Part shown: piece by piece, positions 1-42,439 of the stretch | Position numbering within the stretch: the first letter of the stretch is position 1 | Layout of the letters: every line of letters begins with the position of its first letter | Notes under the pieces: model-generated | Database searches by the model: none | Seen by the model: only the letters and a program-made list of their open reading frames with translations | What the model was told of the DNA's origin: nothing | Program-made: the position numbers and the translations under genes | Assembly (NCBI GenBank): GCA_036172245.1 | Contig: JAYWIR010000053.1 | Location: forward strand, 372,001-436,000 | Length of the DNA stretch: 64,000 nt | From: Raillietiella orientalis | Lineage: Eukaryota | Direction of reading: 5' to 3'

Positions 1-1780
1 TGACCGCCGTTTCGCTTGCATCGGCTAAGGAGCAGGTGCAGTGCGTAACGGGAACGGAATCGTCTCCCGCCGCGAGCGCGAAAAGTGAGCCGGCATCTAT
101 GGCCAAACAAATGAGGGGGGCGTCCGCCTCCTAGGACGGCGTCACCGACGCGGGATGGACTGGCGTCTCCAGGACGCCCAGAAAGGGGAAGAAGAAGGTT
201 GACCCTTCAATATTCCCCATCCTTAAGGTGGGTGGGAGGCAAAAGAGAAGCATGCCGAAGAAGGTGCGTACCTAGGTACGCAATACGACTGCTTGCTGTG
301 TCTCCGTCGCTTCGCGCGAGAAGGCGGCTGCGGAAGCCAAAGCTCAGGAAGCTGCGTTGGCGACAGCGACGACAACAGCGCGGGCAGGGCAAGCCTCCAC
401 CTGCCGAAACAAAAAGAGACTGGCAAAACGCCAGTCTCGCGCCAGGCACTCGGACTCCGAGGTGGAGTCCGAGTGCAACCAAATAAAGCGCGCATCCTGG
501 GGTGAGCCGGTAGCGTGCCGGGCTAAAGTGCTAAGGCACGAGCCTGTTCCCGGAGGCGGTTCCGGCTGCTGCACGGAGACCGAGGCGATGATCCTCGGCT
601 CACAGGACTCAGCTGGGCGCGATGTGGCGGCGAACCTGAGCGATTCCGCTTCCCAATCCGCTCTCCCACCCCCAGACTTCTCGCCGAACGGGGCGAGGAG
701 CACGCCGTCATGTCCGCAGCAGTGATGCGTGGACTCGCGTCCGCTCGTTGCGTCAGCGTAGCCTGTTGGAATGTCAACGGGCTAGTTGATGCTGACAAAA
801 GGCGGAAGGTAGCCAACGCTTTGCGCGCGTTCAATCTGGTGCTGCTGCAGGAGATACATAGCATCTTCGAACGGCAGGCATCGCATCTGGAAGAGCGCGC
901 GGGCGTCACGCTACACTGGCGGCAAGGCACAGCACACGTGCGGAGTCGCGTTTCTCGTCCTAGGCAGGGTGGCGGAGGCGGTGCGCAACGTTTGTTTCGT
1001 AGAGGAAGGTCGTGTGGGCCAACTTCTCCTCAAGTGGTCCGAATCGATCGACCTGGTCGTTACGAACATCAACGCGCCCAGTGGCGGCCGGCATTACGCG
1101 CAGCATCTTGCATTTCTGGGTGGCCTGCGCAGCCGCTGGCTCGCTGACTCCGGCCCTAACGTGGCGCACCTCCTTGCAGGACACTTCAACATCCACCTGC
1201 GAACAGAGGAGAGATGCCGCTTGAGGGAGAAGCAACTGGTGAGCGAGGTATGCGCGTCCGTGCGCGTACAAAACTTGCTTGCTGGTGAGCGCTGGATGGA
1301 GAGTTCGCCGGATTATGCGTTCCTCGATGAACACCTGCTCTCACGAGTAGGTCGGAAACGGCGCCTGCTGTCCGCGATTTCGCATCATCCGAGACTGGAG
1401 TTCAAGCTCCTGCCGCCTGGCAAAATTGCCTCCGATGAATGTTTGGAGGCTGCGGCCGACTGGCTTAGCAATTCGGAGGCGGCGGTGCATCTTCCCCAAC
1501 ACCTCCAGAGCTTCGCCATGCGTGTACTCGAGGACTGGGACGATCTCAAAAGATCGGTCCGCGATTTCTGTTGCCGGTTCCCCTTGCACCTGCTTCCCCA
1601 CGGCTTCGAAGAGGGTGTCGCGAACTGCAGATACTATCTGCAGGCGCGTACCTTCTCTTGATGCCCGGACGTCCGGCGTCCGGCGGAGTACAAGGCCAGA
1701 GATGAGCGCCAGGTTTGGCAGTCTGGAGCGGCTTGTCTGCTCCATGACGGTGGCCAGGAATGCTCGGCTGCAACCGAAGT
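1..1780 (+). mobile_element. Tx1/L1-like LINE fragment X: ORF1 tail (to 725) plus ORF2 APE endonuclease and linker, disrupted
   Basis: TGATG stop/start at 723-727; CWNVNGL, LLQEIH, TNINAP, AGHFN motifs; frameshift near 930 and stop at 1659-1661; ends at ECSAATE|V where the 3' terminus of B begins. Confidence 0.9.
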
Positions 1781-3946
1781 TTGTCATTCAAATGTGCCGG
1801 GGCATTTATTTTTCTAATTTTTTACAAAAATTAGATAATAGAGTCTTTAGAAAGATGTTTTCTGTGAAGAAACACTGGGTTCTCCCACCTTGCTTGACGT
1901 GTCGGTTGCCGGTGCATAGACCGGTTAGGTCCATTCCCGAGGCGCAGGGGAAGGGAAAACTAAAACAAAAACAAACAAATAGAAAGATAACGGGGAGGGA
2001 AACAGTTGTATGGGGAGAGATGGGGGGCAGGGAAGGGATCACTGGGCGCCTGGGTCGGTCCTTCGCATCCAGTTGAGGATGCAGTGAAGTTCAGTTTTTA
2101 TTCTGAAAGGTAGACGCCACCTTGTCGCCGTCTCTAAAGAGATCGTCGTCCAGTGGATGGCGTCCCTGCATCTTGGGCCTCTTCTCCTGGCGTGCCACCT
2201 TTGCACAATGCCGCGCACGCAGCAGAGGACAGCTAGAGACGCAGCGGGGCGCAGGACGTCACGCAGAAAGAGGCGACGCTAAATTTACTTAAAGTCGCCT
2301 ACTGGAAGATGGAGGATTGGGGCGATTCCACTCCAGAGTCTATCCAGGGCGACACACTCGAGAGTGAGATGCGGGAAGGTTTTTCTTTCTCCGCACTCGA
2401 CAGAGCGGGCATCCACATTCCCCAGTGTCCAGTGAGACAGGCGTGCTCTGCTTAACAGTCCCCAGTGCAGAAAAAGCAACGCCGTCTCCTGCCACTTCAA
2501 CGGAAGTGTGCCGCAATCCCAACACGCTGGGGGCAACTTCACCTCCTCCGGAGGTATCGCGAGCAGCACTCCCTAGCGCGCAAGTCCGTGAGGCGGGACG
2601 CTCGGGGTGGCAGCGTCCGTGAGCTCCCGAGTCGTCAACGCCTTTAAAGGTTTTTTCCTGCCTCGGATGAGGCAGGACACTTCCCACGATGCCTGCTCGT
2701 TAATGCTCTTAGTGTTTTTAAGGGAGGACAGAACGGGGGCAAGGGGGCTGAAAGAAGCCCACAGAAACTTCTGGGGCGTGTTGTTAATATCCTGCAGCGG
2801 CTGTCGACCGTACGGTCCTCGACGTAGCAGTTGTATTCCGCCTCGCTCGTGCCGTTGATCTTAGCCCACGCGGAAGCTGACTCCTGAAGCCAGGCAGTGC
2901 AGTTCGCGGGGAAGCAGGAGATCCAGGTATACTCCCTCATCAGGGCGACCATCTGTCGCAAATCGGGGCCACATTTGGAGAGGCTGCACTGGTAGGCCAC
3001 GAGGATGGAAGACAATCCTTCGCAGCCGGTCGCTCTTCTAGCGAGGAGCCTTGCCGGATCGTACCATGGCGTCATCCATAAGCTAGCCGCAAGGGCTAAC
3101 TTTCGACGTGTTGTTTGTAGTTGGATGCGCTCCAACGTAAGCAGGCCCAAGCCACCATCCCTGCGTGGAGCGCACAAGTCTTTCAATCGGACTCGCGAAC
3201 TCGCTGTTCTCCAAAGGGCAGTCCTCAAGTGGGCTTTGGTCCGTCTCTATATGATGGGAGAGGCGAAGCAAAAAAAAATTAAGGGGCGAAGGAGGATGGC
3301 CTCGAACGCGTTCCACACCGCGGCCCGCTCCTTCAAGTAAAACTTGCCGTTCCGGAACGGGCCGATCGCCTACTCCACCTGTTGGAGACGGTCTGACCAG
3401 GCTTCTGCAACGCAAAAGTCCCACAACGGAACGCCAAGGTACTCGAAGCACCTGCCCGTGGGGATCCCCAAGCGGATCCAGTCCGGCCGTCCGGCCCACG
3501 CCGCATTGTTTGAAAGTAGTGGTGATGTAGGAACGATTGTGGATTTCTCTCTGTTCACCTCGATGCCCGTCCCGTGGCGCAGCAACTCAAAGAAATAGTG
3601 TAGCGCCGACGTCGGAATGAACCCGGAGAGCAGGAGCAAAAGGTCGTCGGCGTAGGCCGACACGGCAGACGTGCCGGGACACGAGCTTGGCAGGGTTGCC
3701 AGTGTCTCCCTGTATGCCCTCAGCACCAGCTCGAAGTAGATGCTGAAGAGCATGGGGCTCAGACTGTCACCCTGCCTTATGCCACGCCGAACCGGCACGC
3801 CGAACACGTGCCGGCCGCTGAAATAAATATTGATGTACGCGAAGCGCCAGCAGGAGCGCAGGTAGGCCAAGAAGACGGCCGGAAATCCCAAGCGTTCCAG
3901 GAGTTCCCGAAGGAGCTCCTGGTCGACGCAGTCGAAAGCTTTACGT
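1781..3946 (-). mobile_element. LINE lineage B, 3' half (RT from RKAFD, thumb, C-terminal CCHC, 3' UTR), disrupted
   Basis: RKAFD, GIRQGDSLSP, AYADD, YLGVP, GGLGL, ECGERKTFPHLTLEC; 3' AATAAA and degenerate hairpin terminus at 1781-1810. Confidence 0.92.
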
Positions 3947-5190
3947 CGGCTAGAGCGGACGTGTTTCCTCGGTGCTCCTGTTACCGCAAACCGTCCCTAG
4001 GTGTAGGCTTCGTGTGTGGTGGTGGTCGATCAGGCAGCAATGCCTGACACGACCATCAGTGCGTGTCAGTCGGCGGTGGCAACGTCGCCTCTTGAAGGAA
4101 TGGAGTGCCAGGTGGCGGCGGAAACGTCGCCTTTAGAAAAGTTGGAGTGCCAGGGTACGGCGGCAACGTCCCCTTCAGTGGCAAAGGCGGTGAGGTCGTC
4201 CGCCCCCACAGAATGGGTCCCTGCTGCAGCGTGGGCGTGGAGCGCCGTTGTGTAGGCGCCATTGCCTGCAGCCGCGGCGCAATCATCTGCCTATGTGGAA
4301 GAGGAATATACCCCATTACTATTCTACAAGGTAGGAAATTTGTATCCTTCTGAGTGTGCGCGCGCCTTTTCGAAGGGGATGCGAGCTCTCGATGTTAAAG
4401 AGCAGGAGCTCTGCGCTATGACCATTCGTAGCGGGGGGCAGTACGTAGAGGTGATCTGCAAACATGCAGATCTGGCCCAACGTCTGCTCAAAACCCCAGT
4501 GGTAATGGGGACACGCAGGCTTTTTTTTATTTCGGCGGACCACAGTATGGTGGTCCACCTTTTAGGAGTTACCGCGCGGATGCGGAAAGAACAGTTACGC
4601 TTCGCGTTGGGAAAAGAAGGCACGGTCCATGCAGTATGGACCAACCCTAGTCCTTCCGAGGAATATACCGGAGTTCAGTGCGGACTCACGGCTGCCCGTG
4701 TAACCGTTCAGGATGGCTCTATTCTTCATCACAATCTGGTGGTCGGCGGTGAAAGCGTCGACCTGTGGAACGTGGGAAAGACAAAATACTGTGGCTTCTG
4801 CAACACGTCGGGACACCTCGAAAGGAGGTGCCCCAACGTACAGTGCCAGGTATGCGGGACAATGGGCCACACAAAAAAAGTTTTTCCGCAATCCGCTGTG
4901 CGCGTGGTTTCCGCGAGGAACAAAAAGAAACGCGCGCGGCTGCTACAGAAAAGGCTGGCGGAGAAGGCTGCCGCTCAAGCTGTGCCACCCACACCCCTGG
5001 TCCAGGCCGCAGTTGACACCACGGCAACGAATTCCGAAGAGATCGACAAAAGCGTTCAGGTGTCGGAATCGCAAGAAGCCACAGCGAAAAAGAAAAAGTC
5101 GAAGAAAGAACGACGAATTGAAAAAAAGCTCGCCTAGAAAAATAAAAAACAGAAGGATAGCGACAATTTAAAAGAATGCAGCGTCGTCGT
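3947..5190 (+). mobile_element. LINE lineage A, 5' end plus ORF1 (zinc knuckles), truncated
   Basis: 5' motif GCGGACGTGTTT at 3955-3966; CGFCNTSGHLERRC and CQVCGTMGH; internal stops at 4253 and 5135; homologous to 18906-20306. Confidence 0.9.
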
Positions 5191-7633
5191 TTATTACCCG
5201 GCTGCGCCGGGACGTTTATTATGATATCAACTGGGAACTGTGTTCCCAGGCAAGGGGAACAGAAAATGGGAAGTACATTTCCCGGAACGCAGTCCGGGCA
5301 CACTGAGAGCTCGGAACGGGAGGGGGTTAGACATGAAATCAATGAATTGGTTGGGAGGGCGGGGACAAAGCTATACAGTCTAACCTTTCCTATTCTCAGA
5401 GCCGGCGGTTAATGCCGCCGATCTCCATCCTCAGTTCTGTTCCAAGATGTGGCCACCCGTCAGCCATTTGCAGGTTGCAGGCTGCGGTGTAGGGGCCGAT
5501 GTTGGGACTCCTCGCATCTGTAATACGTGGCGGGCCCACACAATGGCGCACACGCAGCAGATGATTGCTACGACCGCTCCAAGAGAAAGTCCGCCACGCG
5601 TGTAGAAGCGGCGCATCCAATCCAGTGAGGTGTGTCCAGGGTGCAGGAGCGCTGAAGACAGCCGCTGCCACAGCTCCTGGAGGGCTCCGCACTCAAACAG
5701 CAAATGCGGAAGCGATTCCATCGCTCCGCATTTGGCACAGTTCGGGGACGCAACTCTCCCTGAAATCAGGTTCGCCCGCTGGTTGCAGTACAAACCCCAA
5801 TGCACCATCAGAGAAGCGTCCTGCGTCCGCCGAAGGGGGAAGAGAGTCGCGTCCAAACACGCAGAAGGGACCACAAGTTCATCGATGGGCACCCCGAGGA
5901 GCTCACTCCACCGGAGAAGCCCCTTTGCAAGAATGAGAGGTGTGGCAGCGTCTGCCACTTCGCAAGTCTGCCAGCCGCCCAGCAGTCGGGTTTCGCCTGC
6001 GATTTCGCAAGTGATCTCCCACCTCGCCGGCAGGTCACTGTCATCTGGCACCATCAGTGCACACAGTGCTTCGGCGAGTGTCGTAGCGGCTAGGTGTGTC
6101 CACTGGTCCTGGTCTTCCAGCACCTCCCCCATTTTACAGTATGGGGAAAGTTTCACGCAACGGAGTTCAAAACGCGACAAATCCTGTTGCGCTGCCCAGG
6201 ACGATAAGGCTTCCTGCCTCCAGGCGTTGAAGTTCGTCGGCCTGCAGAATATCCACTCATGCTTTCCCAGAAGCGTAGCGAGCTGCTTTGAAGGGAAGCC
6301 GAATCCTCTCTGGGCGCGCTCCGTGCGCAGATGCAACGAACGTAGTCCGTCGCCACCCGTCCTGCGCCGCAGCAGCAGCCGCGCTGTAGCACACCATGGA
6401 GAAGTCCAGAGCTGCGCACAAAGTGCCAGCATGCGGAACTGCACTAGCAGTCCGATCCGCTCCTGCGTCAGGATGCCCAATCCTGCGTCCCGTCGAGGAG
6501 CCGCCAAGTCCTTCAGGCGTATCCTGGACCTCGCCGGTCCCCACAGGGCGTCACGCAACAGGCGTAGCGCCCGGCGCTTAGCCGAGTAGGGAGGGGGACA
6601 AACAAAGAAGAGGGGACGGAGGAGGGGGCAAAAAAAATGTTCCACACGAAGGCCCGTTCCGATGGGGGAAACCTGCCGCCCTGGAGCGGGCCCAGAGCAG
6701 TCTTGGCCTTGTGAAGGCAGTGCGACCACGCTTCTCTTGGACAGAAGGCGACCAAGAAAACGCCGAGGTACTTCAAGCGCCTGCCCGTGGGGATCTTCAG
6801 GCCAATCCAGTCGGACTGCCGCTCCCACGAAAAGCCAACCGGTACAACGGTTGATTGCGTCCTGTTGATGCTCAGGCCCGCTCCCCGACGAATGAGCTCG
6901 AAGAACTTTTCGAACCTCGACGCCGGGGTGGACATGGGCAGCAGCAAGAGAAGTTCGTAAGCATAGGCGGCCACGGCCGGTGTTCCCGGGCAGGAGCTCG
7001 GCAGGTTGGCCAGCGTCAGCCTGTACGCCCTCAGCACCAACTCAAAGAAGATGCTGAAGAGCAGGGGGCTTAAGCTGTCTCCCTGCCTGATACCCCGCCG
7101 TATGGGAATGCCGTACACGTGGCGCTTGCTGAAATAGATACTGCATAACGCGTGGCGCCAGCAGGAGCGCAAGTAGGCTATAAGGTGCGTCGGGAGGCCT
7201 AGGCGTCCCAGAAGCTCCAGAAGGAGGTGCTAGTTTACTCTGTCGAACGCTTTGCAGAGATCGACGGCGACCGCTAAGGCTCCCGGCGTTCCATCGTGCT
7301 TTGAACACCGCCGCTTACCTTTGGCAGCGGCGATTTCGGCTGCCTGGCTCTGCTGCGCCACGCGCTGCTGCAACTCGAACCATATTCGCGCGAAGAAGAG
7401 ATTCGCGTCCATGGACCGACCCGGAACAGCATACGTCTGCTCCGGACTTACCAAGGACTCTGCGATTCTCCCCAGGCGCGCGACCCATAGCCTGGAGAAC
7501 AACTTTACGTCCGAATTTACCAATGTGATCGGACGCCAGTTGCTGAGGTGGCGCAAATCATTGTCTTTCGGCAGGAGCCGCACCTTTGCTGAGCGGAAAG
7601 AAGCGGGAACATCTCATGTCTCACGCATCAGCG
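5191..7633 (-). mobile_element. LINE lineage C, 3' part (RT plus C-terminal domain plus 3' UTR), disrupted
   Basis: NWRPITL, EQTYAVPGRS, VDLCKAFD, RQGDSLSP, mutated YAYE, CAKCGAMESLPHLLFEC; hairpin terminus at 5191-5220. Confidence 0.92.
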
Positions 7634-8745
7634 ACGGTCGCGTACGGACGTGCTTTTGCGTCGCTCCGTTGTAGATTGCTCTTGTGTGTTTTTGTTCTGC
7701 TGTGCTTCTGTGCTGCAATGGGAGCAAAGAAGAACATCAGCCGCAAGAAGGGAACGCCACCTGCTCCTGAGATGCCTGCTTCGGCTGCTAGCAAGGAGCC
7801 TCTGTCCTCGCCGACGGCGAGGACATTCGCCCAGGTCGCTGCTCTCGCGGCTACGATGGGACCTTCGCCCGACAGCCCTGAGCTTCAGGCGTATGTAGCA
7901 AATGGCTACACGCTTGCACTCAGGTGTAAGGTAAGTGTCCTTATGCCTGAGCGGGTTGGGCGCGAGTTTGGCCAGGAACTCCAACGGATTGGAGTTCAAA
8001 AAGGCCAACTGGAGTCCATCATTCCCATGAGTGGGTGCGGCTAATGAAAGGTGTCCAGTAAGGACGCTCTTCTTACGCAGCGTTTGCTACACACGCCGTT
8101 GCTCATTCGTGGGCAGGAAATACTCACTGTCACAACGGACCAGTCGTTCGTTGTCCGGCTCAGTGGAGTGTGTAAGGGCCTTTCGGACCGCCAGGTCGTG
8201 GAGGCCCTTGAAAAATTCGCTACCGTCCACGCGCATTGGAGGCTGCCAAACCCTGCTGAAGGGTTCGAAGACCACCACAGCGGGCTCGCGCAAGTGCGAG
8301 TGACGATGACGGATCGCCGTGCAATGCACACGCGACCGCAGGTGGATGGAATGACCGTCCGCCTGTGGTTTTCCGGGCAAACGCGTGTATGCGCGGAATG
8401 CGGACAGGAGAGTCATCGCATTACGAAGTGTTTCTCGGCCGCTTGCCGTTACTGCCAGGAGCACGGGCACACTAAAGTAACGTGCCCGGAGCTCCTTTTA
8501 AAAAACGAAAAGCGCAGGAACGAATCGCGTTCCGCATCGCGGAATAATCGCCGCGAATCAAGAGAAAGAAACATCAAAGCTTCGAAAAGCGTTGCGAAAA
8601 CCGCGACCACGGACGTGCAGAAAACTGTTTCTCCCCTCCACAAAGAAGGGGTGAAAAACAAAAAAACTCGTCGCGGCGAAGCCTCCGGCTATCGAACCGA
8701 AGGAAGCTCGCGAAGAATGCGACCGACTCGCGGGTTCTCCCGTTG
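7634..8745 (+). mobile_element. LINE lineage D, 5' end plus ORF1 (ATG 7718, one internal stop at 8042), truncated
   Basis: GTACGGACGTG at 7642-7652; CAECGQESHRITKC and CRYCQEHGHTKVTC; homologous to F ORF1. Confidence 0.88.
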
Positions 8746-10689
8746 CCCCAAAGGGCGACACGGAGGAGGTCCTTCGTTCGCTTGTTGACCCTCTCTGTGG
8801 GGGGGCAAACAAAAAGCAGGGAACGGAGGAGAGGAGTAGCGAACATGTTCCAAACCGCGGCCGTTCAGGCAAGAAAAACCTGCCGCCTCGGAACGGGCCG
8901 ATAGCCGTCTCTACTTTTTGAAAGCAGCCGGACCACGCTTCCGCAGGGGAGTAGTCCCCCAACGGCACACCAAGGTACTTGAAGTACCTCACCGTGGGGA
9001 TCCCGAAAGGGACCCAGTCCTGCTGCCCTGCCCACGCCGCATCAACTGGCATCACGGACGACTTCGCCCTGTTCACCGTAAGCCCGGTTCCTCGATTCAG
9101 CAGGTCGAAGAACTTCTCGACCGCCGAAGCCGGGGTGGACATAGGGAGCAGTAGCAGGAGGTCGTCCGCATATGCTGAAACCGCAGGCGTTCCGGCGCAT
9201 TCATGGGGCAGGTGCGCCAGAGTTTCCCTGTACGCTTTCAGTACCAACTCAAAGAAGGTACTGAAGAGCAAGGGGCTCAGGCTGTTTCCTTGCCAGATCC
9301 CAGGTCGCACCGGCACGCCGTGAACATTATGCCCGCTGAAAGTAACATTGGTTAGCGCATCGCGCCAGCTAGAGCGCAGATAGGCAAATAATGAGGCCGG
9401 GAAGCCCAAGCGTTCCAAATGCTCCAGCAGGAGATTCTGGTCGATGCTGTCGAATGCTTTACGCAAGTCGACAGCGACCGCAAGTGCTCTCTCCCCCATC
9501 CGACCATTCGTCGCATGACTGACGGACTCACCGGAACTCCCGGTGCGCATCAAGCCCCTTTCGTGTTGGAGCTCTAGCCAGGTGGATGCGTGGAACAGGT
9601 TCGCCTCCATGCTTCGCCCCGGAACAGCATATGTCTGCTCCGGGCTAATTATGGATTCTGCCACCTGCCTTAGACGCGAAGCCCATAGCCCGGCAACCAA
9701 CTTGGCGTGCGTATTCACAATCGTGATCGGACGCCAGTTGTTCAAATTCCTAAGGTCTCCCCCTTTCGGAAAGAGCCTCACTCTGGCTGACCGAAACGAG
9801 GCGGGAACATCGCCTTCGTCTCGGATCAGCCTTGTCAGCTGAAGCAGCAGGGGTTCCAGCTCTTCCGCGAAGCTCTGATAGAACTCGGCGGGCAAGCCGT
9901 CTTCCCCTGGAGCTTTCCGCAGCTTGAGCCTTTTGATACCGGCGAGAATTTCGCCGGTGGTAAACGGCTCATCGAGGCTTAACGACTCCTCCTCTCCTAT
10001 TGCCGCAGCACCATCCGGAAGCAAGAGCCGAGAGGCACCTTGATCCGGGGGCGCCCTGGCGTAAAGGGAGGAGTAATAGCTCCGCACGAGATGCCGTACC
10101 GACGCCGGGGACAAACATTCCCGGCCCTGGTCGTCCAGCAAGCTGGCCGACCCGGATTGCCAGGCTTGGCATTCGGCCCCGGCGCGGTACTCGGCCAGGC
10201 GATGGACATTAGGGGTTCGCTCGTACCTACGGGCCTGTAAATAGGCCCGATGGTTGCGAGGAATCTCGCCGAAACCGGAGGGCAGGCGGTCCGGGGGGAA
10301 CTGCTCGCAGAACTCCCGGACCGATTCCTTAAAAATGACCCAATCCTGAAGATTGCGGAGCATGACGCCTCTCAGGTATTTGCGAAGGTGTTCCTTCGCA
10401 CCTGAGAGTCGCGTCCAGTCTCCGGGTAGACGCCAGTCCCTGGATCGCGGTCCTTTGTCGCGAGGCCGCAGCTCGCAAATTAACCGGGAATGGTCCGACA
10501 ACGTTGACGCAACCCTCCCCCGTTTGCCGACCCGTGAACACAGGTCAGCGTCGTGGAAGACGTGGTCGATGCTGCGGACCATTCCCCTCTCACCCGCGAA
10601 CAAGTTGCGCGCACGCATGGCGGCGCACAACTCGTTCATCGCGTTCACTTGTGTTTCCGGCTCACCTGTTAGCAGGCGGAGATTGAAAT
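8746..10689 (-). mobile_element. LINE lineage E, ORF2 middle part (second half of endonuclease plus RT); continuation of 16596-18905
   Basis: FNLRLL, SIDH, SDH, KAPGEDG, NWRPIT, VDLRKAFD, AYADD, YLGVP; frame joins GDFN at 16596-16610 once F is removed; 3' end absent. Confidence 0.93.
10681..10689. repeat. Target-site duplication of F (GATTGAAAT), partner at 16596-16604
   Basis: Identical 9-mers abut both element termini. Confidence 0.93.
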
Positions 10690-11002
10690 TTATCACCCGG
10701 TCACGCCGGGGCGTTTATTAATAATAATAAACTGGTCAGGGACAATGTCCCCAACCAAGAGAACGACAGAGAACATAGAAAAATTACCGGCACGCAGGCC
10801 TGGTAAACAAACCGCTCGCAGCGTGGGGGGAATGAGGGGAAACAAACAAAAATCAAAAACTGGAGGGAAGGGAAAAGGGTTTTTGGTTAGGCTCCGTACT
10901 CACGGGGATTTATACGATGAGCACCTAAAATGTTCCGGAGCCTATGGGGACGCGGGTGTAAAAAGAAAATACAAATTTAGTTTATGGAGGGTAGGGCAAT
11001 GA

Positions 11003-14000
11003 TCACCGGGTTGGCCGCTGATGAGGGTGTGTAAACCGGAGGTGTATTGCGGCGAGATTCCTCTTTGTCTCCTCTGTCAAATGAGGCCATCTAGCGGATG
11101 CTCCCATGTAGAAGGATGCTTTGCTGATTACCTCTTGGTGCTGTCCGTTGATTACCAACGCCTGGCGGACGGAAACTATCGCGCGTATGCAACCGATGGT
11201 TGCAATCCTTGCGCTTAGTGACAGCCCGCTCGGCGTGAAGAATCGTCGCAGCAAGTCTCTTGCGGTGTCCACGAAATGCAATAGTGCTGTTGCCAGCCTA
11301 CGCCACAGTCCTTGTAGGACACCGCAGTCCAGAAGTAGGTGCGGAATCGACTCCGTCGATCCGCACCGAACGCAGTTCGCAGACGCAAGTCCCCCGGAGT
11401 CACGATGCCAACGCTCGTTGCACTGAAAACCCCAGTGAACGAAAAGCAGCACGGCTTGTTTCCAAGCAAGGGGGAGCAGCGAACTGTCCATACACTGTGG
11501 AGGGACTACAAGTTCTTCGGGGGTGACAGCAAGTTCTTCTGCCCACCGGAGGAGTTCCTTTGCAGTAACACGAGGAGTGGCGGCGTCCGCCAACTCACTT
11601 GTCTTCCAGGTGCCAAGGAGTTTGGTTCTTCCCGCTATCGTGCAGGAAACCTCCCACCTCGCCGGTTGGTAACTGTCGTTTTTTGCCCTGAGGGCAGACA
11701 GCGCTGCGGCAAGAGGCGTGGCAGCCAGGGTAGAAAACTTCACCTCGTCCTGCAGTACTTCTTCCAAGGATCGTGGAAAAAAATGGCGCAGGGGGCGAAG
11801 ATCTTCAGGGCGTATTCCTTGGAACGCCGCCCAGGATTCAACAGACTCCTGCCGCCAAGCTTCAAAGTTCATTGGGCGGCAGGAGATCCAAGAGTGTGCT
11901 TCCAGAAGTGCGGTCAACTGCCGCAATGGAAACCCGAACCCCCGCTTCCTGTATTGAGTGCCCGGCAAAAGCGAGAGAAATCCTCCGCTGCCGGCGCATC
12001 TCCGCAGGAGAATGCGAGCTGGCACACACAGGGGGGATGTCCATAGCTGGGCACACAGTGCCAGCAGTCGGAACTGCACCTGCAGTCCGATTCGCTCCAT
12101 TGTCAGGATACCCAAACCAGCATCCCGACGCGGAGCTGACAAATCTTTAAGGCGGATCCTGGATCTCGCCGGACCCCAGAGAGCGTTCCTGAGCAGGCGC
12201 TTAGCCCGCTGTTTTGCCGCATAGGGGGGTCCAAAACAAAAAACAGGGGACGGAGGAGGGGGGCCACAAAGGTGTTCCAAATAGTCGCCCGTTCCTGCAA
12301 GGTAAACTTGCCGTTAAAGAACGGGCTGATGGCCAACTCTGCTTTCTGAAGACAGTCCGCCCACGCTTCGGCTGCGCCGAAAGCGCCCAACGGAACGCCA
12401 AGGTACTTAAAGTACTCGCCCGTGGGGATCCCCAGGCGGATCCAGTCGGACTGCCCCTCCCACGACGTACCCACAGGAACGACCACGCTCTTCTCTCTGT
12501 TCACGCTCACGCCCGCTCCCCGACGAATCAGGTCGAAGAAATCCTCGACACTGGACGCCGGGGGGGACATGGGGAGCAGAAGAAGCAGGTCATCAGCGTA
12601 GGCGGCCACGGCAGGCGTTCCCGGGCAGGAGCTTGGCAAGTGAGACAGCGTCAGCCTGTATGCTCTTAGCACCAACTCAAAGAAGATGCTGAAGAGCAAC
12701 GGGCTTAAGCTGTCACCCTGTCGGATGCCCCTACGAACGGGAATACCATACACGCGGCAGCCGCTAAAAGTGATGCAGGTTAGCGCGTGGCGCCAGCACG
12801 CGCGCACATACAGCAGGAGTTGCGCCGGGAACCCAAGGCGTTCCATAAGCTCCAAAAGCAGCTTCTGGTTTACGCAGTCGAACGCCTTGTGGAGATCGAC
12901 CGCGACCGCCAAGGCACCTGGCGTTCCCTCCTGCCGTCGGCGCCTGTTCTTTTTGCCTGCGGCAGTGACTTTCGCAGCAGCTTGGCTTTGCTGCGCCACA
13001 ACTTCCTGCAGCTGCATCCATGTACGCGCGAAAAGGATGTTCGCCTCCATGGATCGTCCCGGAACCGCGTAGGTTTGTTCCGGGCTCACCACAGATTCCG
13101 CGATTCTTCCTAACCGCGCGACCCACAGCTTGGAAAACAACTTGACGTCCGAGTTCACCAAGGTGATCGGACGCCAGTTGTTAAGTTGGCGCAAGTCTCC
13201 GCCTTTCGGCAGGAGACGCACCTTCGCTGAGCGGAAGGAATCAGGGATATTCCCGGATTCACTCATCAGCGTCGCGAGTTTCAGCATCAAGGGAATGAGC
13301 TCCACTGCAAAGCACTGATAAAACTCTGCAGGGAGCCCATCCTCGCCTGGCGCCTTTCGTCTCTTCAGCCCAGCGATGGCGGACGAAAATTCATCCGCCG
13401 TGAAGGGCTCGTCGAGACGTTCGCGTTCCTCCTCGCCGACAACACGAACATCCTGAGACAGGAGTATCTCAGAAAGAATATCCTCCGTCGGGGATTCCGC
13501 GTAGAGCGAGGAGTAGTAGCGTCTCACAATGCGGCGTACTTCGGCTGGGGCCGAACATTCCTTGCCTTTGTCGTCCAACAGGCATGCTGCTCCGGACTGC
13601 CAGACCTGGCGCTCGGCCCTCGCCTTGTACTCTGCGAGACGCCCGACATCCGCACGTCTCGAAAACGTGCGGGCCTGCAGAAAGTCTCTACTGTTGGCCA
13701 CGCCCTCTCCGAAACCGCGTGGAAGCCGGTGCAAGGGGAATTGGCAGCAGAACTCGCGGACAGATCTTTTGAGATCGTCCCAGTCCGCAAGTTCTTGAAT
13801 GGCAAAGCCTCGGAGGTATCCACGTAGATGCTCCGCAGCCTCCGGTTGGCTAAGCCAATCCGCCTGCATCCTCCAGTTTTGCAACGGAGGCCCCCTGCCT
13901 GGCGGAAGGATCTCAAACTTCAACCTGTGGTGGTCAGAAAGCCTAGTCAACAATCTTCCTCTCCTGCCCACACGCGAATGCAGGTTTTCATCGAGGAAAA

Positions 14001-14595
14001 CGTGATCGAGCGATCTTTCCATTCCAGGTTCGCTGACCATCAAGTTGGCGGCGTGCACGGACGCGCACATCTCGATGGGCAGCGCGCGCTTCCTCGGGCG
14101 GCTCCAATCGTCGGAGAGCAGGCGGACGTTGAAGTCCCCAGCGACGAGGTGCGCCACTTGGAAACCGGAGTTGTTGAGCCAGTGGCTCTGCACCTCATCA
14201 AAGAAAGCTACTCTTTCTTCGAGGTAGCGAGAGCCACTCGGCGCGTAGACGTTCGTAACGACGAGATCGATGGACTCGGACCACTTGATGACAAGCTGGC
14301 CTATCCGTCCGTTGTCATCGAAACGAACACTACGCACCGCTTCCGCCATTTTTCCTCTTACGAGGAACGCGACCCCGCACGTGTGTGCGCCGCCGCACCG
14401 CCAATGTAGCGTTCCGCCAGCGCGCTCCTCGATTTCGGCTGCCTGCTCGTCGGAGATTACGTGAATCTCCTGCAGCAGCGCGAGGTCGAAGGGGCGCAGG
14501 GCGTTGGCTACTAATCGCCTCTTCTCGTCGTTCTGCAGTCCGTTCACGTTCCAACACGTTACGGACAGACGACGAGAAGACGCGATTCCCCGCAT
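11003..14595 (-). CDS. ORF2 protein (~1200 aa): APE endonuclease, RT, CCHC; single frameshift near 12230
   Basis: WNVNGL, QEIH, NVYAP, GDFN, LDH, SDH, QTYAVPGRS, KAFD, RQGDSLSP, YADD, CVRCGSTESIPHLLLDC; ORFs 12103-14595 and 11003-12280 join at a homopolymer-rich stretch. Confidence 0.9.
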
Positions 14596-16517
14596 TACTG
14601 CTGGGAAGGTGGCGGCTTTTTGCTCGCTTTATCCGGCGAGTAGACGGCGAGCAGCACGACTGGCAGGCGGGGACGGTCGCCACCGTCCTCTGTCGTGCTG
14701 CATGCATGTAATGCCTCCACGCCAGGCTGAACCCCGTCGGGTTTCGTGGAGACTTCGCGTTGCTTCGCGGCGAGCGTTGCCTGGCTGCCTACTTTTGATC
14801 GGCGCGCACACGCTTTCGAACGAGTTGTCCTCGTCTCGGTGATCGGAACGGCATCCATTTCGGAGTCCGACCGGCGCATGTTCGATCGGGTTTCGGCCTT
14901 CCGCGAAGCAGTGACAGGTTCTGCTGGATTGACAGCTGTCCTGTTGTCGTTTTCCGTCACCAGAGCATCGCTTTTGGTGACGGCTGCTTTCCCGGCGCGC
15001 GCGTTTTCAGCGTGCTCACGCGCAGCTGCACGAGGGACCTTTGCTGAAGTCTTCTTTACTTCATTACGGGTCCTCACTTCGCGTGGCGCCGTAAATGGAG
15101 ATTGTGCTCCATGGCCATCTTTGAAGCCATCCGCGTCTTTGGACGGGAGCACTTTCGATGGCTCCGACACGCTCGTCATGGACGCTGCTTTCGGAAGGGC
15201 TTTTAAGCCCTTCGTTGGCATGGCATCCGCGCCAGTCGAGAGCTTGCTCTCCGACTGCGACGGCGTGAGATTTTTCTCCGCTTTCGCGGTGTTGGATCGC
15301 GACGCGGATTTTTTTTTGCCGACTTTCGAAGTCGACACGGCACAAACCTTCTTACCCGATTTGGGCTTCTCAGCCACTGCAGGAGGTGAAGGAATGGATC
15401 TGACGGTACTGGAAGTGTCCTTACCGCCGTTGTCCATTGACGTCCCCGCCGGTTGCTCGAACTCCGAGAGAGCCGGGCGTGCTTGGGAAGGACAGCTATT
15501 GCGCCTAGGGGGACTTACCATTGCCCCGGATTCCCCGCACCCTTTCTTTTGCGGCTCCCCCGCCGCGAGAGGGGGTGCGCAGGGCTTCGCGTGCGAGGTT
15601 TCCTGCTGCTTTGGGGCGACATTCCGCCTCGCGTTTTTACCGAATTTCTGCCGTGGGGTCTCCAGGTTTTTCGCAGATTTTTTCTTTTTATCCGCGCTTT
15701 GTTTTTTAAAATGGAGCTCCGCGGCTGCCTTTTTTCGCAAAAGATCCGGGCAATTTTTTAATTGGTGCCCGGATAGTTTGCAATAACGGCATTTTGCAGA
15801 GGGGCATTTATCCAAACAATGCCCCTCCTTCCCGCATTGCTCGCACGTTTTTACTTTGCCCACGAACCACAGGTGAACGACCGTGTCTTTCACCTGCAGT
15901 TTGGTGGGCAGCAGACGGCGGTCCGGCATTGTAAGCCGGACTCCAGCGACTCCGCTGTGTATGGACGGGAAGTCCTTGAGGCTGCTACGCACCCTCCATA
16001 GCGCATGGACCGTGGCGAATTTCGCCAACGCGTTCCGAATATCAGTATCGGAGATTTCCGACTCGATGTCGAAAATCTCCACCACAAATGAGTCGTCCAT
16101 GGCGGTCGGGAAGACCTTCTGGCCACGGATCGACAACGGGGTGCGCAGCAAGCGTTGCACAAGTGCAGCGTCTTTGCAACGCACCTTGAAATAGCCCATG
16201 TCTTTTAAGGGCATAATGGCGAGAAGGTCCTCCTCCCGCACGCCAACACGGGTCAGTTCATCGTTGAACTGATTCCCGTCGCGCGCAGAAAGAAAACCAC
16301 TCACCTTATATCGGAGAGCAGGTCTATAGCCTTGGGCTACGTATGCCCGCAACTCCGACTCGTCGAGAGGTTTCCCTTTGACGGCTGCTGTGGCAGCAAC
16401 GTCAGCAAAACTCCTCTCCATTGGCGAGAAAGACGAAGTGGAGGCGGCCGTCGGTTCCGCGATTGCAGATCCAGATGCTGTTCCTCCAACTTCAGTAGCT
16501 TCAAGTTGGGTCGACAT
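14595..16517 (-). CDS. ORF1 protein (640 aa), two CCHC zinc knuckles and long low-complexity C-terminus
   Basis: Open frame from ATG 16517; CEQCGKEGHCLDKC and CRYCKLSGHQLKNC. Confidence 0.9.
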   Translation of the reverse strand: MSTQLEATEVGGTASGSAIAEPTAASTSSFSPMERSFADVAATAAVKGKPLDESELRAYVAQGYRPALRYKVSGFLSARDGNQFNDELTRVGVREEDLLAIMPLKDMGYFKVRCKDAALVQRLLRTPLSIRGQKVFPTAMDDSFVVEIFDIESEISDTDIRNALAKFATVHALWRVRSSLKDFPSIHSGVAGVRLTMPDRRLLPTKLQVKDTVVHLWFVGKVKTCEQCGKEGHCLDKCPSAKCRYCKLSGHQLKNCPDLLRKKAAAELHFKKQSADKKKKSAKNLETPRQKFGKNARRNVAPKQQETSHAKPCAPPLAAGEPQKKGCGESGAMVSPPRRNSCPSQARPALSEFEQPAGTSMDNGGKDTSSTVRSIPSPPAVAEKPKSGKKVCAVSTSKVGKKKSASRSNTAKAEKNLTPSQSESKLSTGADAMPTKGLKALPKAASMTSVSEPSKVLPSKDADGFKDGHGAQSPFTAPREVRTRNEVKKTSAKVPRAAAREHAENARAGKAAVTKSDALVTENDNRTAVNPAEPVTASRKAETRSNMRRSDSEMDAVPITETRTTRSKACARRSKVGSQATLAAKQREVSTKPDGVQPGVEALHACSTTEDGGDRPRLPVVLLAVYSPDKASKKPPPSQQ

Positions 16518-16595
16518 CGTCGTCAAAATGTACGACGCCAAGATGAAGCGGATGAAAGCACGGAGACGAGAGCGAAGAAAAACACGTCCGCACTC

Positions 16596-18905
16596 GATTG
16601 AAATCTCCCGCTATCAGGTGAGCCTTCCGCACGCTCGTGTTCGCCAGCCAGTCGCGCTTCAGGGATTCAAGCAGCCTGGTACGGTTGCTGTATCCCTTTT
16701 GACCGGTTGGGGCGTACACATTCGTAACGATCAGATCGATCGAGTCGGACCAGCCGAGAGTCAGCTGACCGACCCGACCGTCGTCATCGAAGCGCACGCC
16801 CTTCACGGCAGCGTCGATGGCCGGCTTCACGAAGAACGCGACCCCGCAGGTGTTGCGGATGCCGCATTGCCAGTACAGCCGACCCCCCGCGATCGTCTCG
16901 ATCTCCTGGACGTCTGCCGCGGTGATCACGTGGATCTCCTGCAACAGGGCCAGGTCGAACTCCCGCAGGGTGTCAGCTGTATCTCGCCTGTTACCGTCGT
17001 CGCGCAGCCCGTTGACATTCCAACAGGCCGCGCGAATCCGACGGCGACTGGCGAGCCCAGGTGTTACTCCTGGGAAGATGGCAGTGCGGCGTCCGCCACC
17101 TGCTGGGGCGGGACGCTAGGTGTAGCAGGGGGGTCAGGTGCTGAAAGCACCTGGTCCCCCTCCTCCATCGGTGCCGGCGCGTCGGCCGGATCACCCGCAG
17201 GTGGAGTCGCGCCTACCTGTTCGCCCTCCTCCATGGGGGCGGGCTGTTCAGGGTCGGCGCCTGCAGGGGGGACTTCACCCCCCTGTTCACCCTCCTCCAT
17301 GGGGGTGGCCGCATCGACGGCTTCCGAGCGTGGGAATTCCTCCTCCGAATTTCCCACGCTGGCGACGGCTTCCGTCTTCTCCTCCTCGCTGGTGGAGGGG
17401 AGGCGCCTCCTGGGCTTCTGGGACTTGCGTCCCGACTTCCTGGGGGGTGCCTCCGAGGAGGAGGATGTGCTTCCGGCCCCCAGGTCTAACTCACCTGTGG
17501 GGGCCTTCTTCGCCGGAGCCGGCCTTCGCACGGCCTTGCGCGAGGGGTTCTCACGCTCGGCCAGCGTGACCGCGAGCTCCTCCGCCGCCTGCGCGAACGC
17601 GGCGTCCGCGGCTTCGACCGCCGCTATGTCGCGCGGCTCACCCTCTGTGTAAACAGAGGGTTCGCCTTCGCGAGCCTCGGGCGCAGCGGAAACGGCAAGG
17701 GGAGGATCGACGCTCCGGGTGGCAATCTCGGGAACGACGATTCGTTCGAGTGCCACCGTGCACTCGCGCAGAGTTTTCGAGCGGGGACCGGGTTTTTTCG
17801 GCTTTCCGGCCGTCTTGCGCTCTTTGCTCTCCGCGGGTGGGAGTTTCCTTGGTTTTCTGGCCTCTACAAGCTGCCATCCCTCTTCGCCTTCCACCGTTTC
17901 AGAAGGTTTATCCTCCGGCTTACGCGCCGGAGGTTGAGGTGTTGGCAGCTTGTGTTGGCCCTTTTCCACTCTAGGTCTAGAGACCTTTGAAGCGCGTTTC
18001 CCCTGCGCTTTTTTCGCGGCAGGGGGAACCGGGGTGGGGCGTTTTGGGCACACGCGCCGAACGTGGCCCCGCTCCCCGCACAAATGGCATTGTATATTGG
18101 GACACCTTTTACGTAGGTGTCCCACGGTATCACAATGCCCGCAATACCGGGGCTTCCCTACATACCACAGGTCGACGTTTTCTTGCGCCACCTGTAGTTT
18201 GTGGGGAAGCCCACAATTCTCCCGTACGGTCACCCGCGCTGCAGCCTGCCCACCAAAAAGGCTATCGAAGCCGTCAAAAATGGAGGGTTTCGGCCACAGT
18301 GCGTGCACCTCACCGTACTTTCTTAATTCCTCACCAACCGCTGACCGCGTCATGCGGCTGGTGATGCCAGTCATGTGGACCACCACGGAGCGGTCCATAG
18401 ATACTGGCAGGATCTTGCGGCCGTCTACGTTCAGCGGCGCATGGATTAGGCGGTGAGCCAAGGTGACATCTTTGCAGACCACCTCGACCCGCTGCCCGCC
18501 GCTGAGGACGGAGAGGCCGTCCAGATCCTTCTCTGCAACATTCGCGTCCTTCAACGCTTTGCTGAATTCGCGCGCTGTCCGGCCGTCGAACAAGTGGCCT
18601 ACCTGGTAGACAAGCGATGGCTTGTACCCGGAGGCCTTGTATGCGGCCATCTCCGCCATGGCTTCTGCGCTGGACGCGGCCACCATGGCGCTCCATGTCC
18701 TCGGCGTGGCCGGGGATGATTCCGGGGCGGCTGCCCCTGCTCCAGTAGGCTGTGGGGGCGAACTAGCCTCCCCCACTCCCACCTCCATCGCGGTGTCCTC
18801 TGGCGTCGTGGCCATTGGACACCGACGATGTACACAAAACACCACACAGAAGAAAAAGCGCTTTCCTACTACTCTTGAAGAGTGAAGGAAAAACACGTCC
18901 TCCAA
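16596..18905 (-). mobile_element. LINE lineage E, 5' end, intact ORF1 and first half of endonuclease up to GDFN
   Basis: GGACGTGTTTTT at 18889-18900; CWNVNGL, QEIH, NVYAP, HLIAGDFN. Confidence 0.94.
17064..18815 (-). CDS. ORF1 protein (583 aa), two CCHC knuckles and three acidic PMEEG repeats
   Basis: Open frame from ATG 18815; CGHCDTVGHLRKRC, CHLCGERGHVRRVC. Confidence 0.9.
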   Translation of the reverse strand: MATTPEDTAMEVGVGEASSPPQPTGAGAAAPESSPATPRTWSAMVAASSAEAMAEMAAYKASGYKPSLVYQVGHLFDGRTAREFSKALKDANVAEKDLDGLSVLSGGQRVEVVCKDVTLAHRLIHAPLNVDGRKILPVSMDRSVVVHMTGITSRMTRSAVGEELRKYGEVHALWPKPSIFDGFDSLFGGQAAARVTVRENCGLPHKLQVAQENVDLWYVGKPRYCGHCDTVGHLRKRCPNIQCHLCGERGHVRRVCPKRPTPVPPAAKKAQGKRASKVSRPRVEKGQHKLPTPQPPARKPEDKPSETVEGEEGWQLVEARKPRKLPPAESKERKTAGKPKKPGPRSKTLRECTVALERIVVPEIATRSVDPPLAVSAAPEAREGEPSVYTEGEPRDIAAVEAADAAFAQAAEELAVTLAERENPSRKAVRRPAPAKKAPTGELDLGAGSTSSSSEAPPRKSGRKSQKPRRRLPSTSEEEKTEAVASVGNSEEEFPRSEAVDAATPMEEGEQGGEVPPAGADPEQPAPMEEGEQVGATPPAGDPADAPAPMEEGDQVLSAPDPPATPSVPPQQVADAALPSSQE

Positions 18906-20306
18906 CTGGCCTTGGAGGGTTCTGGCTGCAACGAAGCTGACAGCTCCTCCGCTGCTCGCGCGAAGGCTACGTCATCGATGGTGGTGTCGATGACGGACGC
19001 CGCCGCCGTCTCGCTCCCCTCGCTGTTGACTGTGTCAACAGAGGGGAGGTCGTCGGAAGCGGCGAGTTCTTTCCGGCAGCGTTCGGCAACATCGAGAGCG
19101 CGTTCGACAACGACGCTGCACTCTTTAATAATCGCGCTACCTTGCTCTTTCTTCTTCTGTTGGTAGGCGATTTTCTTTTCCATCCTCCTCTCCTTCTTTG
19201 ATTTTTTGGCCGTTCCCACTTGCCACCCAGTCTCCTGACCGGCTCCCTCAACTTTTTCGGCGTTGGTCGCCGGGGTCTCGGGTTCGGCCTGGGTCTTGGG
19301 CGCGGGTGGCACAGCCTTCGCGGCAGCTTTCGCCACCAGCCTTTTCTGCAGAAGCCGGGCGCGTTTTTTAAGGTTTCTCTTGGAAACCAACCGCACTGCT
19401 GCTTTAGGGCACACCTCCCTCGTGTGTCCCATGGTTCCGCATACTTGGCACTGCACATTGGGACACCTCTTTTCGAGGTGGCCCGACGTATTGCAGAAGC
19501 CACAGTATTTCGGCTTCCCCACATACCAGAGGTCGACGGTTTCGCCTTCGACCACCAGTTTGTGGGGAAGAGTGCAGCCCTCCCGAACGGTCACGCGCGC
19601 AGCAGTGAGGCCGTGTTGCAGCCCCGTGTAGTCCTCGAAAGGACTTACTTTCGTCCACTGCGCGTGGACCGTTCCGAACTGTTCCAAAGCGGCGCGAACC
19701 TGTTCTTTGCGCATTCGCGCGGTTACGCCTAACAGGTGGACCACCATGCTGCGGTCCGCCGTAGTGGGGAGGAGCCTGCGCGTCCCCATCACAACAGGGG
19801 TTTTAAGCAGTCGTTGGGCCAGCTCTGCATGTTTGCAGATGACCTCAACGTACTGACCCCCGCTGCGGATGGTCATAGCGCTAAGCTCCTCCTCTTTCAC
19901 ATCGAGAGCGCGCATGCCCTTCGAGAAGGCGCGCGCGCTCTCTAAAGAATATAAATTGCCTACCTTGTAGAACAATGAGGGGTTGTACCCCTCCTCTACA
20001 TAGTCCGACAATTCCGCCGCGGCTGCAGGCGATGGCGCCGACACAACGGCGCTCCACGCCCGCGCTGCAGCGGGGACCGATTCTGTGGGGGCGCATGCTT
20101 CCACCTCCATCGCCTCCGGGGGCGACGTTGTTGCCGCCCCCTGGCTCTCCATCGCCTCTGGGGGCGGCGTTGCCGATGCCTCCTGCCCATCCCTGGTGGT
20201 CGCGTCAGGCATCGCTGCCTGATCGACCACCGGACCACACGACGCTTGCACTGGGGGAGACTTCCTGGCACGAGGAGCACCGGGAAATCACGTCCACCCT
20301 GGAGCA
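18906..20306 (-). mobile_element. LINE lineage A (copy A'), 5' end plus open ORF1, truncated by E
   Basis: GTGGACGTGATTT at ~20285-20297; CGFCNTSGHLEKRC, CQVCGTMGHTREVC. Confidence 0.92.
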
Positions 20307-40783: not shown

Positions 40784-40813
40784 CATTCCTTAATGCTTCG
40801 CCAAACCTATATT

Positions 40814-41824
40814 GAGCGGATGCGTCTGCACCGCGCTACAGAGCAAAAATGGTGTCGGTGAACTTCTGTTTAGGTGTGTGTACGTGCATAGTGTTGCCTA
40901 TGTCCCATGAGAGCGATGCCTGTGGAAAACGCGATCGAAATTAGAGTAGGGAAGGCGAATCTTCTCTACAAGTGAAGGATGTGTAAGCGACCGTTCCTAC
41001 GGAATGCTCTTCGTGCTATTTGAGGGAGCTCTAGCAGAAGCCACCGCCTATAAGGCAACAAGCTGCATGTGGGCAATTATACACAAGGTAGGTGGCATGT
41101 ACTTGGAGACACATTACACGTGTTCACCAATGAACTCCAAAGATTAGAAGTTAAAGAAGAAGACTTTTAAGGTCTTACCGTGCAGAGTGGGTGTCAGCGC
41201 ATCAAGCAGAATTGCAAAGACGTAAGTGTGGTATAGCGCTTGCTAAGAACGCTATGTTGCTATGCCGACGCAACTACTTCCCTGTCACCGAAGAACGGCA
41301 AGTAGTGATCCGAATGACAGGCATCACTGGTCAGATGATTAAAAATGCAGTAAGAAAGAAACTCCAGCATCACGGGAACTTGCGCGCGCGTTGGAGCAAG
41401 TCCTACCACTTTGGGGAGTACGAAAAGCTTTTCAGAGTACCGTTCGCCGGGCTCGCAACCATCGAAAAAAACTCAAGGCTTTTCCAAAAGATCTAGTTGG
41501 GAAACAAGTCCGTGCATTTATCGTACGTGAAGAAGTCTGAGTAACGCGGGCACACTGATGCTACGGATTACTTAAAAAACTGGTGCCCGAAAATGCAGGG
41601 AAACCTTTGTCAAGAGAAGGGTCACAGGTCACATGCCTGGCGTTCTCCCAAAAAGAGAAGCCCAGGCTTTTTATTCTCAAACTATCAAACAGAAGTATCG
41701 CGAACAAAGTGCCGACAACGCCGGCGGAAGCCAAGACTGGCAGGTGGTGAAGACCCGAAACAACGTGCAGCGAGCCCAATAAAGGCGAAAAAACCTGTTT
41801 GCGCGCGACGACCACCTGAAGCTC
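40814..41824 (+). pseudogene. Decayed E-like ORF1 (resumes at 42383)
   Basis: VVIRMTGITGQM, knuckle remnants CPKMQGNLCQEKGH. Confidence 0.75.
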
Positions 41825-42382: not shown

Positions 42383-42439
42383 ACCACCTGAAGCTCCGGG
42401 AATTACTGGTGAACCTCCAAGAAAGAGCGTGAGCAGGAC

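Follow-up and report, generated by a model that had tools for sequence, protein, structure and literature searches.

An L1-like LINE lineage that may insert antisense into the reverse transcriptase gene of other LINEs in Raillietiella orientalis

The known targets of sequence-specific long interspersed elements (LINEs) are ribosomal DNA (rDNA), small nuclear RNA (snRNA) genes, telomeres, microsatellites and one DNA transposon. Sequence-specific LINEs of the apurinic/apyrimidinic endonuclease (APE) type are on record with targets that include transposons, most of them in the early-branching Tx1 and R1 groups, and sequence-specific LINEs are said to follow a multicopy-target strategy (PMC4640811). 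Tx1L uses a specific endonuclease to enter the transposon Tx1D at a single site (PMC1950540), and Zepp LINEs form clusters by nested insertion in existing copies (PMC8226300). Here we describe a cluster of LINE pieces in a 64,000-nucleotide stretch of the genome of Raillietiella orientalis (assembly GCA_036172245.1, contig JAYWIR010000053.1, positions 372,001 to 436,000 of the forward strand), which is referred to below as the window and in which positions are counted from its first letter. At two loci of the window, junctions J1 and J2, the full-length 5' end of one LINE lineage, here called A, lies antisense at the same codon of the reverse transcriptase (RT) gene of two other lineages. On balance, we favour the reading that lineage A inserts antisense and sequence-specifically in RT motif A of other LINE lineages. 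A limited, keyword-based literature search found no description of a LINE that targets the RT gene of another LINE.

The arrangement resembles that of Tx1L, an APE-type LINE of the Tx1 clade (L1 group) in Xenopus laevis with a specific target inside another mobile element (PMC1950540). The open reading frame 2 (ORF2) of the family described here also resembles it in being nearest to L1 ORF2p, the closest solved structure (5.8e-48; R2, 4e-16), and in that the Pfam match of its C-terminal part to zf-RVT is only weak (E 0.0065, below the cut-off). The target is different: related LINEs would be hit, antisense, in the sequence that encodes their RT catalytic motif, with inactivation of the host copy. 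Zepp elements carry poly(A) tails. The family in the window is without poly(A) and has 3' ends made of a stem and TGAYAAA, its full-length 5' ends are common, and three of its lineages recur at single-base sites. Zepp and ZeppL of green algae are similar in that one LINE family piles up inside itself in a local cluster, and different in that their arrays consist mostly of tandem 3' ends (PMC8226300), whereas about 9 of 13 insertions in the window are antisense by our own count. LINEs of the R1/R2 type in rDNA likewise use a multicopy target (PMC4640811), one that is kept constant by selection on its product. The target proposed here differs from theirs in being the enzyme of a selfish element and not a host gene. 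The same difference holds for the sites of homing endonucleases and introns, which lie in conserved gene segments and follow the same target logic, and nothing in the window suggests removal by splicing.

The family is defined by one near-complete reference LINE, E1 (10690-16595, minus strand; 5906 bp), delimited by Pfam matches and by its junctions. Its ORF1 (671 codons, two CCHC knuckles) is followed by an ORF2 with endonuclease (EN), RT and C-terminal parts (Pfam, on 12106-14628: Exo_endo_phos, 4e-13; RVT_1, 1.4e-21). E1 is bracketed by a 9-bp target-site duplication (TSD), ATTTCAATC (10681-10689 and 16596-16604), which lies inside the 'GDFN' codons of the EN of another element, X. The empty site is present in the public run X1 (word share 0.07), in which a contig joins 10680 to 16596 with 9 shared bases; the same run carries E1 at about 99%, extending 29 nt into the X flanks on either side. 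Results from this run rest on the 8 of 582 pieces, 15 of 31 joints and 6 of 347 loose ends listed, among which neither J1 nor J2 is represented; given this coverage, their absence carries no information. With an ORF2 that bears both EN and RT, and with a TSD, the E1 family is an APE-type non-long-terminal-repeat retrotransposon of the L1-like group, and the TSD together with the empty site demonstrates for this one lineage that the nesting is real. LINE pieces crowd both of the GC-rich blocks of the window (1-24 kb and 44-52 kb; GC 0.56-0.61, against 0.43-0.51 in the adjoining DNA).

Because E1 has both a TSD and an empty-site contig, its ends can be taken as the true termini of the whole family. 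The 5' end consists of six bases, then GGACGTG, then a T-run; the 3' end consists of a short CCCGG...CCGGG stem followed by TGAYAAA. The folding of this stem at five 3' ends gave z-scores from +0.77 to -2.66, which as a set are not distinguishable from shuffles. GGACGTG occurs 15 times over both strands of the window, and seven of these occurrences (3957, 7646, 16589, 18900, 20295, 24402 and 48352), preceded by about six variable bases and followed by a T-run, are 5' ends that cover all ORF1 lineages. A first-pass annotation of this DNA had spoken of the word as that of A, to which it is not specific. The invariant word and the T-run could be an initiator or an RNA 5'-end signal; a scan of the window with Rfam at gathering thresholds gave no match, and hence no sign there of a known ribozyme or RNA element.

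At J1, the RT piece is element B (1780-3945, minus), which starts at the R codon of the RKAFD motif, includes the C-terminal domain and keeps its own 3' end (TGACAAA, 1780-1786); it is recognised as RVT_1 (Pfam, E 2.8e-13) and matches amino acids (aa) 581-803 and the C-terminal part of E1 ORF2 in tblastn. Facing it is A (3957-5189, plus), with a 5' untranslated region (UTR) that begins with GGACGTG and an ORF1 with an RRM-like region and two CCHC knuckles, which can be followed to 'KECSVV', where it is cut by the 3' end of a further element, D. On the plus strand the order is GTCGAAAGCTTTACG, then the 11-nt spacer TCGGCTAGAGC (3946-3956), then GGACGTG (3957-3963), the K and R codons of the motif occupying 3940-3942 and 3943-3945 on the minus strand. 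J2 is the mirror image of J1: CACGTCC (20289-20295), the complement of GGACGTG, is followed by a spacer of again 11 nt (20296-20306, minus), the R codon CGC (20307-20309) and the K codon from 20310 (plus). The insert here is A' (18907-20295, minus), with its 5' UTR (GGACGTG at 20295-20289) and an open ORF1 that runs to about aa 460, where the full-length 5' end of X interrupts it; the corresponding ORF (18872-20287) runs for 472 codons without a stop, and its aa 1-394 match A at 67.8% in tblastn. The RT piece is G (20307-22386, plus), found by tblastn and placed by trees in RT clade II, which, like B, begins at the R codon of RKAFD and keeps its own 3' end (TGACAAA, 22380-22386).

The RT similarity of both B and G ends exactly upstream of the R codon. 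When the ORF spanning J1 was compared with 1.84 billion representative proteins, two of the 5805 matches at E ≤0.001 were close. These two RT relatives, P0001 and P0044, are intact, read through AVDLRKAFD and contain no further junction. The alignment of P0001 starts at its residue 230 in both cases and continues in one frame, with two stops in B (aa 230-584) and three in G (aa 230-589). Intact RTs of the window (n=3; 9460, 12888 and 7253) read AVAVDL[R/H/C]KAFD at this place. The first-pass annotation had described the host RT as cut just before the Arg codon, 11 nt from GGACGTG at both loci, and these coordinates are confirmed; it had also stated that the cut separates the motif-A Asp from YADD, and this too is correct, YADD lying downstream in B. 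Since E1, whose ends are set by its TSD, has 6 nt ahead of GGACGTG, the spacers are probably made of an element leader of about 6 nt and about 5 extra bases. We estimate the chance that two independent 5' ends fall at the same phosphodiester in the same orientation within an element of about 6 kb at about 1 in 10^4. Two origins considered for the details of the joint were rejected: the roughly five bases beside the R codon do not match the L/D codons of any intact copy, as leftover host sequence would, and a comparison by eye of the A leader with the AVAVD codons shows weak microhomology at J1 and none at J2.

A duplicated junction needed testing because a single blastn block crosses the joint (3632-5190, plus, against 20611-19107; 73.1% over 1562 columns). 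The ORF1 products of A and A' are 71.5% identical, with a synonymous divergence (dS) of 0.81 and a ratio of nonsynonymous to synonymous divergence (dN/dS) of 0.22 over 389 codons, and they group with a support of 100/100 in the ORF1 protein tree, ((F,(E1,E2)),((A,A'),(X,X'))). They had been described as close relatives; sisters they are, but close they are not. For B and G the values are a dS of 0.93 and a dN/dS of 0.32 (213 codons), and for B2, a close copy of B, against G they are 1.6 and 0.34 (517 codons). In the DNA tree of the RT-C and C-terminal parts, ((X2,(B,B2)),(E1,(G,(D,E2 3' part)))), every node has a support of at least 99, and a clade of B, B2 and G is rejected by the approximately unbiased (AU) test (p 2.5e-5). 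Within the junction-proximal 330 nt, B already goes with X2 and G with clade II (99/98), and the AU test again rejects B+G (p 0.016); as this split persists at the joint, there is no sign of a shared ancestral RT stretch that was overwritten further out.

Taken together, these comparisons indicate that A and A', and likewise the B lineage and G, diverged mostly as active, working genes and not as one duplicated junction, and that sister inserts sit in non-sister hosts. A single decayed duplicate would give a dN/dS of about 1 and many stops. The earlier propositions that B and G are different lineages and that the two loci are not copies of one junction are thereby upheld. The pieces also differ in their decay at J2, where G has 3 in-frame stops in 362 codons and A' none in 472; at the rate of G, the Poisson chance of finding no stop in A' is estimated at about 0.02-0.03. 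Judged from these stops, the host G is older than the insert A'.

In the reading we favour, the window holds a nest of L1-like, APE-type LINEs with younger elements within older ones, and A would be a sequence-specific member of it. The integration machinery of A would cut the RT gene of its rivals at the motif A codons (VDL/RKAFD) and insert antisense, the full-length 5' end of A being joined, via a few extra bases, to the cut strand just after the Arg codon. The insertion would part the catalytic Asp from YADD and so kill the host copy. Specificity may come from the endonuclease of A or from target-primed reverse transcription, and the 'VAVDL' halves of B and G would once have lain beyond the 3' ends of A and A', to be lost via later insertions and a rearrangement at about 8726. 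As expected of a target-specific LINE, both A-lineage 5' ends (n=2), independent of each other by the trees and dN/dS, share the base at which they enter the target as well as their orientation in it. Fixed-site insertion is seen elsewhere in the family, for lineage E at GDFN (9-bp TSD, empty site) and for D at KECSV, and among the joints listed for run X1 there are B-like and G-like RTs that continue upstream of RKAFD (3942->9786 and 13040<->20374). Site-specific antisense insertion, which the first-pass annotation had implied, is the best reading of both loci and not a proven one, the 3' junction of A being unseen.

The pieces around J1 and J2 can be read as insertions that form two half-nests. 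The left one consists of H (plus, ending at 1779, where its ORF2 at about aa 364 adjoins the 3' end of B), B (minus), A with its spacer (plus, 3946-5189), D (minus) and F (plus). D (5190-7639) is a clade-II LINE that extends from ORF2 aa ~453 to its 3' end; it lies antisense in the ORF1 of A, which its terminal TAATAAA meets at 5189/5190, and stands head-to-head with F. F (7640 to ~8726) has a full-length 5' end and an ORF1 that extends to about aa 360. The right half-nest consists of X (~8727-18906, minus; leader 18906-18901, GGACGTG 18900-18894) with E1 nested inside, A' with its spacer (minus, 18907-20306), G (plus), X' (minus) and l (plus). The 3' end of G adjoins X' at EN aa ~74 (22387), and X' (22387-24408) has a full-length 5' end head-to-head with l (24409 to ~24915), an ORF2 interior joined at aa ~303-327. 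Under the half-nest reading, the head-to-head joints would therefore be full-length elements inserted antisense in the ORF2 of a host. The joints at 7639/7640 (F with D at aa ~453) and 24408/24409 (X' with l at aa ~303-327) are not at RKAFD.

The half-nests meet at about 8726, where the ORF1 of F (plus, aa ~360) is joined to the ORF2 of X (minus, aa ~870). Neither side is the terminus of an element, and the two nests were probably brought together here by a deletion or rearrangement; that no 'VAVDL' half or TSD of A is visible would be because this event hides the complementary halves. Since A stops at the 3' terminus of D and A' at the 5' terminus of X, both were once longer elements that were later hit themselves. 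As D (5190) and X (18906) interrupt both copies before ORF2, the ORF2 of A, its TSD and the 'VAVDL' half are out of sight.

Several observations weigh against insertion at a specific site. There are just two A copies in the data, both in one 64-kb window, where both lack a visible ORF2, 3' end and TSD as well as the 'VAVDL' half that would complement the host, and the spacers of J1 and J2 agree at just 5 of 11 bases. Three of the six RT copies that keep, or are expected to keep, the motif region are unoccupied and intact there (X2, E1 and D), and E2 is degenerate. At J1 the insert is not visibly younger than its host (4 stops in 409 codons of A, 2 in 361 of B). In three of the four head-to-head joints (A with B, F with D, X' with l), ORF1 and RT share a major clade, which is what the 5' inversion of a single element would give and would occur by chance about 0.3 of the time. 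The three recurrent sites in the window (RT motif A, GDFN and KECSV) share no target motif, and the nest model requires one unexplained interior-to-interior breakpoint, that at about 8726, hiding all complementary halves. Within the window, no N-terminal RT half was found beside the family 3' ends, neither at the nine ends found by pattern nor at that of B2, and the stretch upstream of H (1-700), considered as a place for the ORF2 of A, holds a K/R-rich tail only, without an A-specific match.

An alternative that we consider unlikely is a head-to-head dimer formed in one integration by twin priming in trans. The two strands of a staggered break would prime reverse transcription, one on an A RNA and the other on an RNA of B or G. 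Having copied the A RNA to its 5' end, the polymerase would jump onto the 3' end of the growing B or G cDNA and add a few untemplated bases, so that the RT piece would be a 5'-truncated new copy and not a split old host. The geometry of a full-length 5' end, a 5'-truncated ORF2, outward 3' ends and about five extra bases fits this course of events, which also permits different lineages on either side and agrees with the four head-to-head joints within one window and with the similar decay of A and B at J1. It would demand that the second cDNA stop at the identical base in two unrelated RT lineages, for which there is no evidence of a pause, and microhomology between the A leader and AVAVD amounts, by eye, to 12/20 with two gaps at J1 and 7/21 at J2. 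The greater decay of G compared with A', the adjacency of the outer ends of A and A' to termini of other elements and not to one shared target, and the position of the two remaining head-to-head joints elsewhere in ORF2 (aa ~453 and aa ~303-327) all speak against it.

Classical twin priming in cis, in which A with B and A' with G would each be one element with an inverted 5' part and a large internal deletion, appears to us quite improbable. Ostertag and Kazazian reportedly described such twin-priming 5' inversions of L1 in 2001. The present joints are like these inversions in being head-to-head and in combining a 5' segment with a 5'-truncated 3' segment, and the ORF1 of A and the RT of B, which both fall in clade I, could be cognate. 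They differ in the recurrent breakpoint, in the distal ends, which are termini of other elements, and in the lineages joined at J2, where A' (ORF1 clade I) meets G (RT clade II); the colinear elements X and E1 are I/I and II/II, respectively, and the mosaic element E2 makes it conceivable that one lineage combines an ORF1 of clade I with an ORF2 of clade II. A common origin of insert and RT is further at odds with the dS between the B lineage and G (0.93-1.6), up to twice the 0.81 between A and A', and with the three stops in G against none in A', which do not suggest sides of the same lineage and age at J2. Moreover, two events would have used an identical breakpoint, at least 2.7 kb would be missing, and the distal ends of the arms (3' terminus of D at 5190, 5' terminus of X at 18906) carry no TSD. 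The earlier claim that the loci are not 5'-inverted copies of a single element is thus favoured at J2, with its mismatch of clades and its stops, where the mismatch makes it unlikely that an A-type ORF1 is colinear with such an ORF2; at J1 both sides are clade I.

It is very improbable that one ancestral junction was copied, by segmental duplication or as a composite or 5'-transduced unit, and its RT side later overwritten by recombination: the blastn alignment across the joint, the recombinant element E2 and the many diverged paralogous blocks of the region would suit such a history, but dN/dS is 0.2-0.35 on both sides at a dS of 0.8-1.6 with largely open frames, B and G fall in different clades right up to the joint and reach complete 3' ends, unlike a transcribed 5' extension, and a neutral stretch at a dS of about 0.8 would be only about 50% identical by our estimate. 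On the dN/dS values and the trees we reject neutral segmental duplication, transfer as a composite or by 5' transduction, and gene conversion that reaches the joint.

Beside the junctions of lineage A, two further sites in the window are used repeatedly. E1 and E2 both start directly after the GDFN codons of an X-type EN (GGAGATTTCAATC/GAGTGC and GGAGACTTCAAC/CAGTGC), and the 3' ends of D and E2 (5171-5200 and 42590-42625) lie antisense at the same base (+/-1) after 'KECSVV' in two diverged A-type ORF1s; A' is unoccupied at this site (~19126). E2 (42613-48358, minus) is a mosaic LINE with an E1-like 5' part and a D-like 3' part: it is about 90% E1-like to about 350 nt 3' of KAFD, and from there 70-89% (mostly about 80%) D-like. 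Its 5' flank (48346-48505 region) consists of an X-like EN whose GDFN site is interrupted as it is for E1, and its 3' flank is a fragment of an A-like ORF1 (~42384-42612, plus) cut at KECSV like A, so that the flanks match the halves, E1-type at the 5' and D-type at the 3' side. The dN/dS values (D against the 3' part of E2, 0.38 at a dS of 0.48; X against the X-like flank of E2, 0.36 over 100 codons; E1 against the 5' part of E2, 0.56) show that these recurrent-site pairs have also diverged under selection. With two copies of each lineage, recurrence through gene conversion or composite copying is possible for E and D. ORF2 aa ~364 (H and 26417-27627) was considered as one more recurrent site, a fourth, and dropped; there is no insertion at 26417, where the similarity just fades.

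Tentatively, the three sites may point to L1-like LINE lineages that form a guild and use one another for homing, with a selectively frozen coding motif of a rival as the target in each case: A the RT motif A (VDL/RKAFD) in antisense, E the EN 'GDFN' and D the ORF1 'KECSV'. If such a guild existed, its members would serve one another as safe, self-renewing landing pads while competitors are disabled, a form of hyperparasitism among retrotransposons with a target logic like that of homing endonucleases. If the sites of E and D hold up, they would make up a set of lineages that mutually target each other. What would be new in the case of A is a target that consists of the active-site codons of the own enzymes of rival LINEs, entered antisense. 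Such targeting would amount to direct interference competition between retrotransposon lineages and would account for the deep nests of LINEs within LINEs that some genomes contain. It would also provide an APE endonuclease from nature whose defined target lies in a protein-coding motif, and a test of the idea that mobile elements choose targets held constant by selection.

Relatives of the junction-forming elements were also sought elsewhere. The ORF1 product of A' had no match at near lengths in a set of 5.8 billion proteins and no relative among metagenome contigs, and the ORF spanning J2 (19979-20593) gave no match. In a scan of metagenomes with an RT profile, at least 19 of the 596 matched stretches were relatives, and among the matches listed these were all distant, with 22-39% identity.

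Some smaller features of the window may be mentioned. The copy B2 (48767-50783) is about 85% identical to B and, unlike B, is cut at RT aa ~631; it lies 36 nt from a C-terminal fragment of an X-like ORF1 on the opposite strand (48730-48767), a joint that is non-terminal. The 3' end of B lies in H right after the codons for ...QECSAATE, in the linker between EN and RT (1752-1786), and the GAATGC word at this joint resembles the start of the ORF1 'KECSV' site of D, at different distances. A direct repeat of 1420 bp (50779-52198 and 59385-60804; 99.6% identity) is unrelated to the LINEs, and its ORFs are without a Pfam match. Finally, the window contains an AT-richer sister group of elements, with 3' ends of the form AATAAAAGCCCCGG...CCCGGGTGAAAA at about 24916, 25905, 40790 and 42383. 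One element of this group cuts l antisense at about aa 470, and the segment at ~40790-42383 may be a short, ORF1-only derivative of the group.

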